From sequence record NC_055712.1: a stretch of DNA of 64,000 nt; one strand, written 5' to 3'. Below are positions 43,717 through 50,309 of the stretch, piece after piece; position 1 is the stretch's first letter, and the number at the start of each line of letters is the position of its first letter. Origin of the DNA: Escherichia phage phT4A. The position numbers and the translations under genes are program-made. Under the pieces are notes generated by a model. That model did not search any database, was not told the origin of the DNA, and saw only the letters and a list, made by a program, of their open reading frames with translations.

Positions 43717-43998
43717 ATGAAATTTCGTGAAACTGTGAAATACCATAACGCGGTCGAATATACGCAGATTTTTGTTGATATGTCTCCTGCAAAATTCAAA
43801 GAACGCTATGGCATGACATTTAATGAATGGAAAGATGGATTGTCCGATGGGGATTACCGAAAAAACTTCAAATTCAGTGAATGTTATGTGGATGATGACC
43901 CTTACGATCTGGATGTTTGTAGTAAAACAACACCTCTCATTGAGAATTCACCAGAACAGCTTTACGAATCTTGTATTGATTCTGCATACGAAATTTAA
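43717..43998 (+). CDS. hypothetical protein
   Basis: 93 aa ORF. Confidence 0.5.
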   Translation: MKFRETVKYHNAVEYTQIFVDMSPAKFKERYGMTFNEWKDGLSDGDYRKNFKFSECYVDDDPYDLDVCSKTTPLIENSPEQLYESCIDSAYEI

Positions 43999-44007
43999 AG
44001 AGATAAC

Positions 44008-44427
44008 ATGAAAAATTTACAAAAACTGTTTAAAATGTCTCCGGCAATTAGAAAAATCATCGGAGAAAGCAATCCAACGAATCGCAATAAAAAGTTGATG
44101 GAACTTTTTGTAAAAGAGTTCGATGATTTTGATTCTGAACTTCGTAAAGCGCTTGAGGCATATTCCAAACAAGGGTTCTTTGCATCGCCGCAAGTGAATA
44201 GTAAGAAAGAGTATAGCGAACGATTCTTTGATTGGGAGATTGTCAACCTCGTTCGTAGAACAAATATATCTCCGAGCAATCACCAATTGATTTCTCTTGA
44301 TACTTCGGTATTCTTCATCCAGTATCTTATTAGTGGTGGTTTCAAAAATCCTGAAATTCCGTTTACAAATGAAGCGGTTAGCAGTGAATTTGATGAATCA
44401 TTTGTATACATCAACACAAACAAATAA
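44008..44427 (+). CDS. hypothetical protein
   Basis: 139 aa ORF. Confidence 0.5.
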   Translation: MKNLQKLFKMSPAIRKIIGESNPTNRNKKLMELFVKEFDDFDSELRKALEAYSKQGFFASPQVNSKKEYSERFFDWEIVNLVRRTNISPSNHQLISLDTSVFFIQYLISGGFKNPEIPFTNEAVSSEFDESFVYINTNK

Positions 44428-44462
44428 TCAAATGGCTATCTTCGGATAGCCTTATTTTTGGG

Positions 44463-45035
44463 GTGTCTATGCGCTTTTTAAAGTATGCAAGTTGGATCGT
44501 ACTCGTCCCTCTTGACATTATTACTGGAGTATTAGCAATTCTGTTTGCCCCGTTTGTTGTACCATTCTACAACGAGAAAACAGGGCATCTTCCTAAAGGC
44601 TTCCGGTGGATGGAAACCTTCGATAACCCTATTGATGGTGATGGTGGACATATCCGCCGTTGGGCGTCCATACGCTATCATCTGGGGGATTTTGGGGTGT
44701 ACATGCAACGTGTTGGCTGGTTGTGGAGAAACAAGGCTTATAACTTCGCATATCACGTTTTAGGACGTGAAGCGACAAGCAAATTCAACTGGAAAGGCAA
44801 CCCAAAAACAGAAGGTGGGCCGAACCCTGTAAATCATGGGTATCTGCTCATGTGGAACGAATCAGCATGGGGTTTGTACGTTTACAAACCGTGGCTACGG
44901 ATCCACAAAGTGCAATTCTGTTTGCGCGTTTATGCTGGATGGAAACTGAAACAAGAAGTTAGCGACCCAGTTAACCTGGATCGTGCAATGCTGGCGTTTC
45001 ATTTCAACCCGTTCAGGTATTATGTAATCAAGTAA
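44463..45035 (+). CDS. hypothetical Trp-rich membrane protein
   Basis: 190 aa; N-terminal TM segment. Confidence 0.5.
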
Positions 45036-45045
45036 AGGTAATACA

Positions 45046-45408
45046 ATGAAAGCATTTCAAATTTTAGAAGGTTTGCATACTGGTACGATCTATCTGGAAG
45101 AAGGTAACGACGTTCGGATCGTAGTATCAAAAACATTAACTATGGATTCTGTGATCGGTAAAGCTCGCGTTACTCCGTTTGAAAAGCGAGAGATTGAGAT
45201 CGAATATCAACCAACTGTTAAGGTGGAAGGTGGACAGCATTTAAACGTAAACGTGTTGCGCCGCGAAACTCTCCTGGATGCGGTTGAACATCCTGAAAAA
45301 TATCCACAATTGACGATCCGTGTATCTGGTTATGCAGTGCGTTTTAACTCACTGACCCCTGAACAGCAACGCGACGTTATCGCCCGAACCTTTACAGAGA
45401 GTCTATAA
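45046..45408 (+). CDS. grcA: autonomous glycyl-radical cofactor (GrcA/YfiD-like)
   Basis: C-terminal ~60 aa ([17 protein letters not shown]...[33 protein letters not shown]) near-identical to recalled E. coli GrcA incl. RVSGY glycyl-radical motif. Confidence 0.85.
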
Positions 45409-45677
45409 TGGCAATTGATGATATCAAGGGTTATAAACCCCATACTGATAAAAAAGTAGAAACGGTAAACCGTATCAAAGATGCTGAAAATGCATTAGGT
45501 GCAATCCTGGAAGATATCGAACAGCGACTATCAAATTCAGATATTGATTCACTGATAGAGGAAGAATTAGATGAGGTGCTTGAACGTATCCATCAAATTC
45601 AACTAGCGAAAGACCGACTGAAAGAAGCCTCTATGTGGGCGTGTCGTGCGGTGTTTCAGCCTGACGAAAAATATTAA
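45408..45677 (+). CDS. hypothetical protein
   Basis: 89 aa, ATGA overlap. Confidence 0.5.
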   Translation: MAIDDIKGYKPHTDKKVETVNRIKDAENALGAILEDIEQRLSNSDIDSLIEEELDEVLERIHQIQLAKDRLKEASMWACRAVFQPDEKY

Positions 45678-45682
45678 AAATC

Positions 45683-45718
45683 AAGCCGTTGCCGAAAGGT
45701 AGCGGCTTTTTCTTTTTT
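45683..45718 (+). terminator. Rho-independent terminator
   Basis: Hairpin AAGCCGTTGCC-GAAAGG-TAGCGGCTT followed by TTTTTCTTTTTT. Confidence 0.6.
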
Positions 45719-45723
45719 GGTGT

Positions 45724-45752
45724 AAAAAGTTGTTGACTCCCTTCTCACATTC
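45724..45752 (+). promoter_or_regulatory. sigma70-like promoter (TTGACT -17- TATAGT)
   Basis: Consensus-like hexamers, 17-nt spacer, upstream of gene 45803. Confidence 0.55.
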
Positions 45753-45802
45753 CCTTATAGTTAATCCCGTAGACAAGAAAACACTTTTATGAGGATGACA
45801 TT

Positions 45803-46096
45803 ATGAAACGCTCTTACAACATGAATGAACTGGTTTTCTTCAAAACTCGTCGTGAAGCACGTGCTTACGTTCTGGCGGCTGGTAAAAATACTTCTGCTGC
45901 TATCGATATGGGTACTGATAAAGCTGTTGGTGCTCGTTGGGCCGCTGTTATCGTTATCGCTGCTCCGGTTACTCCGGTTAAAACTCTGGTACTTGGTGCG
46001 CGTCACGCCGAAACTCTTAACACTGCTGCAAGCGGTAGGGGCCACGAAGTTAAAGTGTTCAAGAAGCGTTCTTATCTTTCATGTGCAAGGGGTTAA
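45803..46096 (+). CDS. hypothetical small basic protein (host-optimal codon usage)
   Basis: 97 aa; strong promoter upstream; CGT/CTG/GCT-rich codons. Confidence 0.5.
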   Translation: MKRSYNMNELVFFKTRREARAYVLAAGKNTSAAIDMGTDKAVGARWAAVIVIAAPVTPVKTLVLGARHAETLNTAASGRGHEVKVFKKRSYLSCARG

Positions 46097-46098
46097 CT

Positions 46099-46338
46099 AT
46101 GGCACGATTCATATATAAAGTGGAATACGAAAATACTGAGTTATCTGATACCTTTTTGAAGATGATTCGTGACCACGGGCAACGTCTGGAAAGAGTAACG
46201 ATTGATACTGCGTTTGATTGTCCTGTTGGGTTGGTTCTAACATTATCTTGCAGCCCTGCAAAAGAATCAGCCCGTGTTGAAATGTTACATAAACTAAATG
46301 CATTTTATGAAGGTGGTAGTGTATGGCGAGTATTGTAA
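46099..46338 (+). CDS. hypothetical protein
   Basis: Start at MARFIYK, SD AAGGGG. Confidence 0.45.
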   Translation: MARFIYKVEYENTELSDTFLKMIRDHGQRLERVTIDTAFDCPVGLVLTLSCSPAKESARVEMLHKLNAFYEGGSVWRVL

Positions 46339-46495
46339 AATTTTTCACCGACTCAGTGAAAGAAATTAACAGCGCTCTGGAACAATGGAACACTCGCTGT
46401 GATGTATCCATTAAATCAGAGTACGAAACAACTTATGATCGTTATGATCAGGCCCGTGGTTTGCACAATAACCCCCATGAGGTGGAAGTGTGAAA
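46325..46495 (+). CDS. small hypothetical ORF (56 aa)
   Basis: Hand-translated. Confidence 0.3.
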
Positions 46496-46640
46496 TACTA
46501 CGGATTCAAAACGAGTCATTTTGGTAAAGCGTATCGTACAGAAAACATCGATCGCAAACGTCCGTACTATGATTCTTTAGTACGCGCGGGACGCAAACGC
46601 GCTCGCCAGGAAGGGAAGAAGGAAGCAGAAAATGAACTTT
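46490..46640 (+). CDS. small basic hypothetical ORF (GTG start)
   Basis: Hand-translated; SD GAGG upstream. Confidence 0.25.
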
Positions 46641-46734
46641 GATCAACCCATTGCAATGATAATCGGTGCTGTCCTGGGAATGCTTCTTTTGTTTGGCGGA
46701 ATCCCATTAACTGCATATATCATGAGGTTATTCT
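46630..46734 (+). CDS. small membrane peptide (34 aa)
   Basis: MNFDQPIAMIIGAVLGMLLLFGGIPL... Confidence 0.25.
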
Positions 46735-46737
46735 AAA

Positions 46738-47178
46738 ATGGACATCGGATCAGGTAGTCAGTATCCCTCATGCGCTTTAAGCAACTTTGCCCCGCATCCG
46801 TTTACGTTCGACGGGGTAGAATGCGCATCGATGGAGGGGCTTTTACAAAGCCTGAAATTCAGCAATCCAGACATGCAAGCGCATGTATGTACGCTGGTTG
46901 GTAAAGCCGCCAAGTTCAAAGGCAAGAAAAAGAAATGGTATCGCGATCAGACCTTGTACTGGAAAGGTACACCGATCCATCGCGAATCCGAAGCGTACCA
47001 GATTCTTATTGAAAATGCGTACAATGCTCTTTTCCTGAATGACGGGTTCCGCCGTGCGCTGGCAGCAACCGGAAAAAGTACCTTGACACATTCAATGGGG
47101 AAATCTCGTATGAACGAAACTATTCTGACAGAACGAGAATTTATTAGAAATTTGAACAGGTTGAGAAATTTGTTATGA
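46738..47178 (+). CDS. NADAR / YbiA-like (DUF1768) domain protein
   Basis: ALSNFAPHPFTFDGVECASMEGLLQSLKF matches the YbiA/NADAR signature. Confidence 0.7.
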   Translation: MDIGSGSQYPSCALSNFAPHPFTFDGVECASMEGLLQSLKFSNPDMQAHVCTLVGKAAKFKGKKKKWYRDQTLYWKGTPIHRESEAYQILIENAYNALFLNDGFRRALAATGKSTLTHSMGKSRMNETILTEREFIRNLNRLRNLL

Positions 47179-47693
47179 AAAGCGCTGATAACCTAAAAAA
47201 AGAAATTGAAGGAATCAAGAAATTATTGCATTATATCGATGTTGATATAGAGACTGGAATATGTACTTGGAAAAGACCCAGAAAATCTATAAATGTTGGT
47301 GATGTTGCTGGATGTAAGAAAGAAAAATATCATGTTATTTGTTTCGATTATAGGTTGTATAGACGACACAGGATTGTGTTCTATTTTGCTAAAGGTTACT
47401 TACCTCAAGTAGTAGACCACATTCATGGTGTTGAACATGGCGACGGTATTGATAATTTACAAGAGGCATCGCAAAGACAAAACGTTATTAAAAAGAAAGG
47501 ACAGAAAAACAACAAAAGTGGTTATCGAGGGGTGTGTTGGTCGTCTCGTGCTGAAAAGTATCGAGCAACTATAGGTATTGATGGAAAACAAATACATTTA
47601 GGATATTTCGATACTCCAGAAGAAGCAAGTAAAGCATATCATCAAAAAGCGAAAGAAACTTTTGGTGATTTTTATAATCCATTGGTTAAATGA
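47175..47693 (+). CDS. HNH endonuclease with AP2 domain (freestanding homing endonuclease)
   Basis: VVDHIHGVEHGDGIDNLQ HNH core; YRGVCWSSRAEKYRATIGIDGKQIHLGYFDTPEEASKAY AP2-like. Confidence 0.8.
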   Translation: MKSADNLKKEIEGIKKLLHYIDVDIETGICTWKRPRKSINVGDVAGCKKEKYHVICFDYRLYRRHRIVFYFAKGYLPQVVDHIHGVEHGDGIDNLQEASQRQNVIKKKGQKNNKSGYRGVCWSSRAEKYRATIGIDGKQIHLGYFDTPEEASKAYHQKAKETFGDFYNPLVK

Positions 47694-47701
47694 GATCTGT
47701 T

Positions 47702-47965
47702 ATGAGTGAAAAAGAAAGAGTAGAATGCGTGTTCCTGTTCAAAGGCGCGATTAATCCATTAGCGTTACTGTATGCGCAACATGCATTACGTTCAACGTTG
47801 ATTCAGAGTGTTATCTATAAAGCAGGTGTGTATTATGTTACCATCGGCGCAAATAACATGGTTGTTATTGAATCCTATGTTAAGGAATGTGCATCAAACG
47901 GCGTTGTCTTTGATAAAGTCGATTTTGATGCAGGGGTAGATGCTGTTTATATGTATAAGGGTTGA
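47702..47965 (+). CDS. hypothetical protein
   Basis: ORF. Confidence 0.4.
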   Translation: MSEKERVECVFLFKGAINPLALLYAQHALRSTLIQSVIYKAGVYYVTIGANNMVVIESYVKECASNGVVFDKVDFDAGVDAVYMYKG

Positions 47966-47966
47966 T

Positions 47967-48188
47967 ATGAGTTACGTAGTTTATTTCGATTGTTCGGATC
48001 TCGATCCGTTCGTGCTTCAACAGGCAAAGAAATATCATCAAGATGTCGTTGGCATTGGTGTAACAAATGATGATATGTTGTGCATCGAATTTGAATATTA
48101 TCGGACATTTGAGCGTGAACAATTCCTGGGTGAATTGAATGCATTCAAAAGTACCCTTTTCTTTGATCGTTATGAGGTTATATCTTGA
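47967..48188 (+). CDS. hypothetical protein
   Basis: ORF. Confidence 0.4.
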   Translation: MSYVVYFDCSDLDPFVLQQAKKYHQDVVGIGVTNDDMLCIEFEYYRTFEREQFLGELNAFKSTLFFDRYEVIS

Positions 48189-48799
48189 AACCTGTTATTC
48201 TTACCGATATTGACGGGATCGCCGTAAAATGGCAGTCGGGGTTGCCTTTCTTTTTGTCTAAGCACAACATGCCTACTGATATTGCATTGGAAATGGTTAC
48301 GGATGAAAAATTTCGTGATATGACCGAAATCTTCGGATGTGATCAGCAGTTGGCTAAAATCCTTATGGAAGAATACAATAACAGTTCTTTCATTCGTTAT
48401 CTGAATGCGTATGATGATGCATTGATTGTGATCAACCGTCTGAAAACGCAGTATGATTTCGTTGCCGTTACCGCTCTGGGAACAACACCAACGGCAAGCC
48501 TTAACCGAATTGCTAACCTGAATACTCTTTTCCCGTCTGCGTTTAAAGAGGTGATGGTCGTGGGCCACGGTGAAACAAAAACTCATCGTTACCTGGAAGC
48601 AAAAGCAAAGTATGGTAATCGTCTGGTTTGCTTTGTTGATGATCTCGCGATAAACTTAAACGAATGTCATAACGTCATTAGTCAGTTGCCGTTATTCCAT
48701 ATGTTACGTGGTGAACGTGAAGAAACAAATGCACCTCACCAGTTAGTAAAATCGTGGTTTGAAATTGAAGAGAAACTAAATGATCTTGTCAATCCTTAA
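48185..48799 (+). CDS. HAD-superfamily hydrolase-like protein (putative nucleotidase/phosphatase)
   Basis: N-terminal ILTDIDGI (DxD HAD motif I); TTG start. Confidence 0.45.
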   Translation: MKPVILTDIDGIAVKWQSGLPFFLSKHNMPTDIALEMVTDEKFRDMTEIFGCDQQLAKILMEEYNNSSFIRYLNAYDDALIVINRLKTQYDFVAVTALGTTPTASLNRIANLNTLFPSAFKEVMVVGHGETKTHRYLEAKAKYGNRLVCFVDDLAINLNECHNVISQLPLFHMLRGEREETNAPHQLVKSWFEIEEKLNDLVNP

Positions 48800-50309
48800 T
48801 GAACTTGCGTCTACTCTGAAAACCAAAGAGAAAGAAGCAATTTTAAAACGTAATGCCGATAATGAATTATTGAAAGAAGTTTTCCGCATTACGTATACAA
48901 AACAGATTATGTTTTATGTGCGTCAATTTCCTCTGGTAGAAGGGAAACCAGGCACAACACCGCTTTCCGATGCAATCAAAGCATTGCTGGAAGATTTAGC
49001 AAGCCGGAAATATACAGGCAATGCAGCGCGTGATCGTTTACTGGATATTGTATCATCAGTGAACATTAACGATCGTGAAGTGCTACGCCGTATCATTAAC
49101 CGCGATCTGGAATGTGGTGCTGGCACAACCTTACCAAACAGGGTATGGAAGAAACTCATTCCTGAACAGCCTCAATGCCTCGCTACGCCGTTTAGTGAAA
49201 AGGCTTTACGTCGCATCATTTTCCCTGCTTACTCGCAGCTTAAAGCCGATGGTGCGCGTTGTATGGCTGATTTGTTGGAAGCATTAAACCGTAAAGTATC
49301 GAGGGCGGGTAACGAGTACGAAGGGTTAACCCAACTTGATATCGATCTGAAAAAGATTCGCGATTATCTGGGATATGATGTAGTTCTGGATGGAGAATTG
49401 ATTTATGTTCCTTCCGGAACCGTACCAACATTACCTGAACCTGAAACAGACATGCCTTTTTCTTTATCTGCTTTCATGGACGATGATGATAACGACATTG
49501 CGTTATTTGCGGAAGAAGTTCGCAAAGTATCGACCCCAGAAGAAGAACAGGCCGAAGCAAAACGCGAAGAAGGGAACGGGATCGTAAACAAATCTCTGAA
49601 AGGGACGATCACCGAAGAAGAACAGCGAAACATTGTTTATGTTGTTTGGGATATTATTCCATATGAGGTGTATTACGGCGAAGCTGAAAGTGTTCAGACT
49701 TATGATGAACGGTTTAGCCTGTTGCGTGATATCCTCCTGGATCTTTCTCTGCCTTCTGTTCGTTTGATTCAGTCTAAGCTGGTTAATAACATTGCAGAAG
49801 CGAAACAGGACTATAACAATTACCGCAATGACGGTAAAGAAGGTTCTATTCTCAAAAACAGAAACTTCAAATGGAAAGATTCGCGAGTAGCCGATCAGGT
49901 TAAGCTGAAAAACAAAACCCCGATTGAACTACGGATCATTGATATCTACGCGCACACTAAAGAAGACCATAAGGTCGGCGGGTTTGTGGTGGAAGATTTA
50001 TCCGGAATGGCTCGAACGAATACCGGATCTGGGTTAACTGATACCGATTATCGTTACGATGATGATGGTATTACCCGTGTATACATTCCATTAGATGAAC
50101 GTGGTGAACTGGATCGCGAATACATCATGGCGCATAAAGATGAATACATTGGGGCCATTGTAGAAATGGAAGTTGACGGCCTCCAGAAGTCGAAAACGCG
50201 TAAGAAAGGGGAACCGGAATACAGTTTCTTCCTTCCTATTATCAAGAAGATAAGACGCGATAAGACCGAACCCGACGATATTCATGTTGTCTTTGCAGAT
50301 CTATTTTGA
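48780..50309 (+). CDS. 30: ATP-dependent DNA ligase (gp30)
   Basis: 509 aa; adenylation motif KADGAR; collinear with recalled T4 ligase. Confidence 0.9.
   Translation: MILSILNELASTLKTKEKEAILKRNADNELLKEVFRITYTKQIMFYVRQFPLVEGKPGTTPLSDAIKALLEDLASRKYTGNAARDRLLDIVSSVNINDREVLRRIINRDLECGAGTTLPNRVWKKLIPEQPQCLATPFSEKALRRIIFPAYSQLKADGARCMADLLEALNRKVSRAGNEYEGLTQLDIDLKKIRDYLGYDVVLDGELIYVPSGTVPTLPEPETDMPFSLSAFMDDDDNDIALFAEEVRKVSTPEEEQAEAKREEGNGIVNKSLKGTITEEEQRNIVYVVWDIIPYEVYYGEAESVQTYDERFSLLRDILLDLSLPSVRLIQSKLVNNIAEAKQDYNNYRNDGKEGSILKNRNFKWKDSRVADQVKLKNKTPIELRIIDIYAHTKEDHKVGGFVVEDLSGMARTNTGSGLTDTDYRYDDDGITRVYIPLDERGELDREYIMAHKDEYIGAIVEMEVDGLQKSKTRKKGEPEYSFFLPIIKKIRRDKTEPDDIHVVFADLF

Follow-up and report, generated by a model that had tools for sequence, protein, structure and literature searches.

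A stretch of 64,000 nucleotides from Escherichia phage phT4A (record NC_055712.1; referred to as a whole as the window) was found to carry, on its plus strand, an open reading frame (ORF) at positions 46738..47178 which begins with an ATG at 46738, ends with a TGA at 47176-47178 and is predicted to encode a protein of 146 amino acids; the TGA overlaps the ATG of the downstream gene (47175-47693). An earlier note on this DNA, made from the letters alone, had pointed to a signature, ALSNFAPHPFTFDGVECASMEGLLQSLKF, as that of a NADAR (YbiA-like) protein, and the signature was located at residues 13-41 of the product. The ORF is real: its product matched the Pfam family PF08010 ('Bacteriophage protein GP30.3') far beyond chance (E=6.2e-55, 185.2 bits against a curated gathering cutoff of 36 bits, profile positions 2-137 of 138), as well as PHROG 652 (E=4e-52). 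When compared by BLASTP with gp30.3 of phage T4 (sequence taken from the T4 record), residues 1-146 aligned with residues 4-152 at 43% identity (E=1e-35), and the alignment reached the last T4 residue. The product is a full-length Slopekvirus orthologue of T4 gp30.3, the protein also called AdfN or 'phage NADAR', and consists of the core domain only; it conforms to the phage NADAR/gp30.3/AdfN family in every feature that could be tested. The ORF is designated adfN below.

Equivalents of the known active-site residues were identified through the alignment with T4 gp30.3, an hhalign alignment with Escherichia coli YbiA and a further alignment of YbiA with PnNADAR, which together place Glu33 and Lys40 (see Table 1 for details). 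The third residue, His118, lies one position beyond where the hhalign block stops (T117, aligned with V124 of YbiA), and ungapped extension puts it on YbiA E125, the equivalent of PnNADAR E125. In PnNADAR, coordination of the distal ribose falls to E43 and E125 and phosphate binding to K50, while mutation of the equivalent residues of the E. coli C7 DarG1 protein (E88, D171 and K95) abolishes activity (PMC11543638); the E36A and K43A mutants of T4 AdfN are impaired (PMC11825919), and a histidine on the last strand has been described as the signature of phage NADARs (PMC11543638, PMC11125620, PMC12945103). All three residues were invariant in an alignment of 36 relatives. Among 159 family domains, drawn from the 150 best representatives at 50% identity together with T4 and the window protein, the glutamate was conserved in 148/156, the lysine in 152/157 and the histidine in 141/146 (95-97%).

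The C-terminal helix is likewise retained, with T131, E134, F135, L139 and R143 conserved. This part of the protein is of importance in T-even phages, as removal of 15 C-terminal amino acids reduces the activity of T4 AdfN, and phage RB69, which is sensitive to DarTG1, carries a weakened allele that has lost the helix by a frameshift (PMC11825919). A divergent adfN allele occurs in other Slopekvirus genomes (80.5% nucleotide and 91% amino acid identity); both alleles carry all of the catalytic and helix residues, and the ratio of non-synonymous to synonymous substitution (dN/dS) between them was 0.03-0.05, from which it follows that adfN is under strong purifying selection. Residues and helix together strongly suggest that the window protein is catalytically competent.

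A structural model was built with AlphaFold2 from the 36-sequence alignment (mean predicted local distance difference test score, pLDDT, 90.5; predicted template modelling score, pTM, 0.86). The model has the YbiA fold, in which two small sheets flank a helical core, and 122-129 of its residues were aligned to NADAR cores in a fold search; a Foldseek search with the model returned the identical top three entries. Comparison of the family profile with the single YbiA sequence by hhalign gave E=9.6e-5 over 90 columns at a probability of only 58%, and one family member (P0236) reached the Pfam NADAR model at E=1.6e-4. A link to solved NADARs by sequence only had been attempted and failed, the connection being made by fold search and hhalign alone. 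On the strength of the model, the window protein is placed in the NADAR superfamily by fold, within a sister family that has a Pfam model to itself and stands outside PF08719 as defined by a hidden Markov model (HMM). Since the NADAR HMMs miss their thresholds (scores are given below), the basis for this membership is the fold together with the profile-profile comparison.

The biology of T4 AdfN has been described in some detail. The toxin DarT1 ADP-ribosylates guanine at N2 in phage DNA, by which replication is blocked, and T4 AdfN does not bind DarT1 but removes the ADP-ribose enzymatically; T4 lacking AdfN is sensitive to DarTG1, expression of AdfN rescues RB69, and gp30.3 (T4 and T2 alleles, in E. 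coli) is both necessary and sufficient for resistance of T-even phages to DarTG1, with no effect against the thymine-specific DarTG2 (PMC11825919). In vitro the T4 protein hydrolyses ADP-ribosylated guanine (G-ADPr) on DNA and not ADP-ribosylated thymine (T-ADPr) (PMC11125620), and it cleaves G-ADPr on RNA, less efficiently than DarG1 does (PMC11833690). Hydrolysis of guanine-linked ADP-ribose on DNA has thus been demonstrated for it (PMC11125620, PMC11825919, PMC12945103), while removal of ADP-ribosylated cytosine (C-ADPr) appears in a summary table for the NADAR and YbiA families alone (PMC12945103).

The ORF in the window is accordingly read, by analogy with T4, as the Slopekvirus AdfN, a minimal NADAR ADP-ribosylglycohydrolase of the phage type that would counter guanine ADP-ribosylation of the DarT1 kind, and we give this reading a probability of about 0.82. 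Like T4 AdfN, the window copy most likely removes ADP-ribose from guanine and acts against DarTG1. The proposal of the earlier note that the gene encodes a NADAR/YbiA-like, guanine ADP-ribose-removing anti-defence enzyme finds support, again by analogy, in the orthology with gp30.3, the fold, the catalytic residues and the published work on T4. Under the proposed mechanism, adfN would be expressed together with the adjacent small genes on the same strand, in what, judging from the order of genes in T4 and a single promoter-like site, may be an early gene cluster. The enzyme would bind ADP-ribose attached to N2 of guanine in the phage DNA and cleave the N-glycosidic bond, with Lys40 holding the diphosphate, Glu33 and His118 flanking the distal ribose and the C-terminal helix completing the fold. 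Removal of the ADP-ribose would erase the replication-blocking marks left by a guanine-specific ADP-ribosyltransferase (ART) of the DarT1 type belonging to the DarTG1 toxin-antitoxin system of the host, so that the phage could replicate; AdfN would in effect serve as a phage-borne orphan 'antitoxin' of type IV.

The window protein was compared with the other known NADARs and anti-DarT factors. It has in common with T4 AdfN the E/K/H active-site triad, the C-terminal helix, the core-only architecture, which has been described as that of the phage NADAR (PMC12945103), the match to PF08010 and the slot upstream of gene 30.2 and the ligase gene, whereas 57% of its residues differ and it is 6 amino acids shorter. 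The catalytic aspartate of DarG1 proteins (BC4488 family; E. coli C7, Geobacter/Trichlorobacter lovleyi, PDB 8BAT) is replaced by His118, and the N-terminal extension that forms an electropositive DNA channel in DarG1 (PMC12945103) is absent. Moreover, no ART/DarT domain was detected by Pfam or PHROG in nine flanking ORFs (46081-48799), which makes adfN of the window an orphan. With histidine in place of aspartate, no extension at the N-terminus and no darT beside its gene, the protein is not a DarG1; T4 AdfN itself is unable to replace DarG1 in uninfected cells (PMC11825919). Nor does it belong to the YbiA family, because the last-strand glutamate of E. coli YbiA (E125; PDB 2B3W) is also replaced by His118. 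YbiA is an N-glycosidase of riboflavin intermediates, encoded in a LexA-controlled operon, which gives no protection against DarT1 in vivo (PMC11125620).

Other phage-borne NADARs, namely AdfN(Bas32) and AdfN(Bas60) of T5-like phages and Vequintavirinae, also counter DarTG1 but not DarTG2 (PMC11825919). AdfN(Bas32) and AdfN(Bas60) stem, by independent acquisition, from other NADAR branches outside PF08010 and, unlike T4 AdfN, are autonomous in uninfected cells. AdfA and AdfB counter the same defence, but as non-enzymatic binders of the toxin that bear no sequence or structural relation to NADAR. AdfA is reportedly T4 gp61.2 (LeRoux et al. 2022), and no gp61.2-like sequence was found by tblastn in the 64-kb window, a weak negative since the gene 61 region probably lies outside it. 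Screening against the PADLOC defence-system models gave no match to the NADAR protein.

The distribution of the gene was assessed in databases of phage and other sequences. The 45-49 kb stretch was 99.3% identical to Klebsiella phage vB_KpnM_Prick1_ER44 and 95-99% identical to approximately 100 further myoviruses of Klebsiella, Enterobacter and Raoultella with genomes of roughly 176 kb each, one of which is Raoultella phage Rpl1 (Straboviridae, genus Slopekvirus); because of these near-identical relatives the window was recognised as a portion of a T4-like phage genome. The gp30.3 family as a whole comprised 4138 homologous clusters at 90% identity, or 1434 representatives at 50% identity, and was present in 1508 of 50,697 phage records, 272 of which were from Klebsiella phages; the hosts were very diverse and included Aeromonas, Vibrio, Acinetobacter and Brevundimonas. 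In essentially all of these roughly 1500 records the gene was annotated as 'hypothetical protein'. Copies from phages of Cronobacter, Yersinia, Stenotrophomonas and Vibrio shared 64-78% identity with the window protein, whose median identity to family representatives was 48%, against 36% for T4 AdfN, a comparison that is biased since the profile used to rank these representatives had been made from relatives of the window protein. Judged by these identities, the window protein appears to belong to a larger and more typical gp30.3 branch, to which T4 is a 43%-identical outlier.

Longer family members were also encountered. Domains of the gp30.3 family in the metagenomic proteins P0125, P0150, P0171, P0192 and P0210 were found in some cases as tandem duplications, of about 290 amino acids, or of 480 amino acids with three matched stretches, and in others as fusions to modules that were unrelated (LRR_5 of the BspA type, Lgt, a membrane domain resembling FtsW/RodA, or none that was recognisable). 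These arrangements suggest that the 'phage NADAR' domain may also serve cellular or other contexts, though gene-calling artefacts are possible. The fusion partners were considered as a Rosetta-stone clue to the co-factor of T4 AdfN and set aside, as they were unrelated to one another and none was consistent.

The order of genes around adfN was established by searching the window with T4 proteins (tblastn). Matches to pseT, cd and gene 31 were located at 41.0-43.1 kb, to 30.3 at 46.7 kb, to 30.2 at 48.2 kb and to gene 30 at 48.8 kb, all on the plus strand, so that adfN occupies the same slot as in T4, between gene 31/cd/pseT and 30.2/30 in the early region that runs from gene 31 to gene 30. The positions of the features are given in Table 1.

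Table 1. Positions of features within and around adfN in the window.
Feature	Coordinates	Strand	Description and basis
Codon GAG, Glu33	46834..46836	+	Catalytic/ribose-binding; equivalent to T4 E36, YbiA E48, PnNADAR E43, E. coli C7 NADAR E88
Codon AAA, Lys40	46855..46857	+	Phosphate-binding; equivalent to T4 K43, YbiA K55, PnNADAR K50, E. coli C7 K95
Codon CAT, His118	47089..47091	+	Subfamily-defining last-strand residue; equivalent to T4 H123
C-terminal alpha-helix, residues 132-145	47131..47172	+	AlphaFold2 model; alignment to the end of T4 gp30.3
Diverged tract, 34-aa ORF and entire adfN (~140 nt upstream)	46600..47178	+	Sliding identity, blastn blocks
Free-standing HNH-AP2 homing-endonuclease gene	47175..47693	+	Pfam HNH_3, AP2; PHROG 99
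Gene 30.2 orthologue, synteny anchor	48185..48799	+	48% identity to T4 gp30.2, E=4e-67
Gene 30 DNA ligase, synteny anchor	48780..50309	+	39% identity to T4 gp30, E=3e-106
Candidate sigma-70-type early promoter, TTGACT-17-TATAGT	45733..45761	+	Consensus scan

By tblastn, none of the small T4 genes 30.1, 30.4-30.9 and rIII could be matched in the window, which makes 30.3 one of a small number of genes to persist in this hyperplastic region; the T4 internal ORF 30.3' also has no counterpart, and the host group (Klebsiella/Enterobacter/Raoultella) is another than that of T4. In place of rIII and 30.9-30.4, the interval between gene 31 and 30.3 (43800-46740) holds about ten unrelated small ORFs on the plus strand. 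One of these, of 120 amino acids (45046-45408), has a C-terminus of the glycyl-radical type, and records of relatives label it 'autonomous glycyl radical cofactor' (GrcA-like). The other small ORFs flanking adfN matched only PHROGs of no known function; the description of the neighbourhood in the earlier note, as small unknown genes next to an HNH-AP2 endonuclease, is correct.

Directly upstream of adfN lies a hydrophobic ORF of 34 amino acids (46632-46736), MNFDQPIAMIIGAVLGMLLLFGGIPLTAYIMRLF, where no gene is annotated in the Rpl1 record and whose sequence looks like that of a single-pass membrane peptide. Further upstream, a strong terminator-like hairpin (45683-45708; an 11-bp stem followed by a T-run) was observed just before the candidate promoter, within the 125-nt gap upstream of the ORF at 45803. 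Promoter-like sites in the region were not more numerous than expected from shuffled sequence in a consensus scan, which yielded one good sigma-70-like site; the hairpin and predicted promoter (45683-45761) could plausibly mark the boundary of an early transcription unit containing adfN.

On the downstream side, 30.3 and 30.2 overlap in T4, whereas in the window about 1 kb, taken up by the HNH-AP2 gene and two small ORFs, separates adfN from 30.2. The gp30.2 orthologue has 204 amino acids compared with 278 in T4, the C-terminal ~80 residues of the T4 protein being missing, and its N-terminus (MKPVILTDIDG) resembles DxD motif I of haloacid dehalogenase (HAD) phosphatases; the record of one relative says 'phosphatase'. 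When considered as a partner of AdfN, it gave no Pfam, NCBIfam or PDB sequence match. In the closest relative, Prick1_ER44, an extra ~490 bp with three tiny annotated minus-strand ORFs separates gene 30.2 from the small ORF that ends, in window numbering, at 48188; this segment is absent from the window and is another indel polymorphism in the region.

The gene adjoining adfN was identified as a homing endonuclease from its matches to HNH_3 (26.1 bits, cutoff 24.8), AP2 (30.3 bits, E=5e-7, just below the cutoff of 33.3) and PHROG 99 'HNH endonuclease' (E=1.6e-57). Its presence is polymorphic, as it is missing in Rpl1 and CP-p-KP-21068, where the adfN stop directly overlaps the next ORF (GAGATCTGTTATGAGTG). 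The window differs in having a cassette of ~516 bp inserted precisely where the adfN stop meets the start of the following gene, and the junction motif is found at each of its ends. Identity between the window and Rpl1 was 99-100% up to ~46600 and again from 47692 on, but fell to 63-87% at the nucleotide level across the 34-amino acid ORF and adfN. It had been considered that insertion of the HNH gene recoded only the last ~75 nt of adfN; this was wrong, since the diverged tract spans the whole gene and ~140 nt upstream of it. In the phage collection, about 19 records carried both adfN and the HNH gene, with an adfN at least 90% identical to that of the window, while around 150 other records matched the adfN portion only, at 80-89% identity. 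Judged from these alignments, the HNH-linked tract looks like the trace of a homing endonuclease that has dragged flanking DNA with it, in this case an entire anti-defence allele, by one-sided co-conversion.

A number of points weigh against assigning an anti-DarTG1 NADAR function to the ORF. The window protein scored 13.8 bits (E=0.069) with Pfam NADAR (PF08719), under the cutoff of 35.1; 16.2 bits (E=0.0095) with TIGR02464, for which the cutoff is 73.7; and 12.4 bits (E=0.06) with NF053876 'NADAR family anti-phage protein', for which it is 240. The three sub-threshold matches all span common residues (about 10-118), however, which speaks for the link to NADAR. Searches of PDB sequences with the protein (phmmer) and with the 36-sequence profile (hmmsearch) found no NADAR. 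The clustering of E33, K40 and H118 at a pocket is a prediction from alignment, and identity to T4 AdfN, the sole member so far characterised, is only 43%, so that the function is assigned by analogy; T4 AdfN may moreover be atypical within the family, with the bias of the comparison noted above. T4 AdfN fully works only in T-even infection (PMC11825919), and a required partner may or may not exist here; T4 AdfN does not detoxify DarT1 in uninfected cells and barely helps phages other than T-even ones (PMC11825919). Lastly, no sign of DarTG1 in Klebsiella, Enterobacter or Raoultella was found, as a search of the literature brought up only DarTG of the macrodomain type in K. pneumoniae. For that reason, the presumed relevance of DarT1-like toxins to hosts of the Klebsiella group is the weakest link.

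As to the HMM scores, the earlier note had suggested a search against NADAR/DUF1768 and had regarded the lack of a significant match, or of conserved catalytic residues, as grounds for rejection. Taken literally, the lack of a match is what was obtained with PF08719, but this proved too strict a measure, the family having a model of its own in PF08010, and a search against NADAR/DUF1768 alone would wrongly reject a correct idea. The conserved catalytic residues that were to be looked for (E33, K40 and H118) are present.

It was also considered whether the same chemistry might be directed at another target, either G-ADPr left by a toxin other than DarT1 (pierisin/ScARP-like, YarT-like or a Klebsiella ART) or RNA, in which case DarTG1 would not be the relevant defence. 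The hydrolysis of G-ADPr on RNA by the T4 phage NADAR (PMC11833690) and the pairing of NADARs of the YbiA family with YarT, a toxin unrelated to DarT (PMC11125620), speak for such a target, as does the lack of any report of DarTG1 in Klebsiella in the literature. The very diverse hosts of the ~1500 phage records suggest, furthermore, selection by something widespread. On the other hand, we know of no defence system that employs an ART acting on RNA guanine. In addition, the sole in vivo phenotype of any family member is against DarTG1, and the phage clade is reported to have its nearest relatives in the NADARs of DarG1 (PMC11825919), which leaves another target unlikely.

That the protein is instead a metabolic N-glycosidase of the YbiA type which clears reactive intermediates of the riboflavin pathway, or a similar housekeeping enzyme of nucleotide metabolism, is highly improbable, as the last-strand glutamate that is the signature of YbiA is replaced by histidine, the match is to PF08010 rather than to the YbiA family, the anti-DarTG1 role of the T4 orthologue has been demonstrated, and control of riboflavin damage is of no obvious use to a lytic phage. 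Equally little weight is given to a decayed or inactive copy of the kind seen in RB69, kept only as a flank or target of the adjoining homing endonuclease. A mobile HNH gene does lie exactly at the 3' end of adfN, the allele looks to have been imported with it, and RB69 provides a precedent in which lesions at the 3' end weaken the protein (PMC11825919); against this, the frame is full-length and aligned to the last residue of T4 AdfN, all catalytic residues and conserved residues of the C-terminal helix are kept, and the dN/dS is low (0.03-0.05). The reading as a functional AdfN directed at DarT1-type guanine ADP-ribosylation is thus retained. A tentative and rather doubtful extension of it is that the typical gp30.3 branch differs from T4 AdfN, either in being autonomous, without need of a T-even co-factor, or in facing a guanine toxin other than E. 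coli DarT1, and that the HNH-AP2 gene spreads the allele of the window between phages; if true, a selfish endonuclease would drive the exchange of an anti-defence gene.

Overall, adfN of the window is an ordinary and conserved phage counter-defence gene of a kind already characterised. It reveals no new principle; a bioinformatic prediction of the family dates from 2012, and work demonstrating its chemistry and its role in anti-defence followed in 2023-2025. The finding is of practical use chiefly for annotation, as the gene can be named adfN (phage NADAR, DNA guanine ADP-ribosylglycohydrolase, anti-DarTG1), including in many Klebsiella phages that are therapeutic candidates. For phage therapy, by analogy with T4, the presence of adfN would predict insensitivity to defence of the DarTG1 type.
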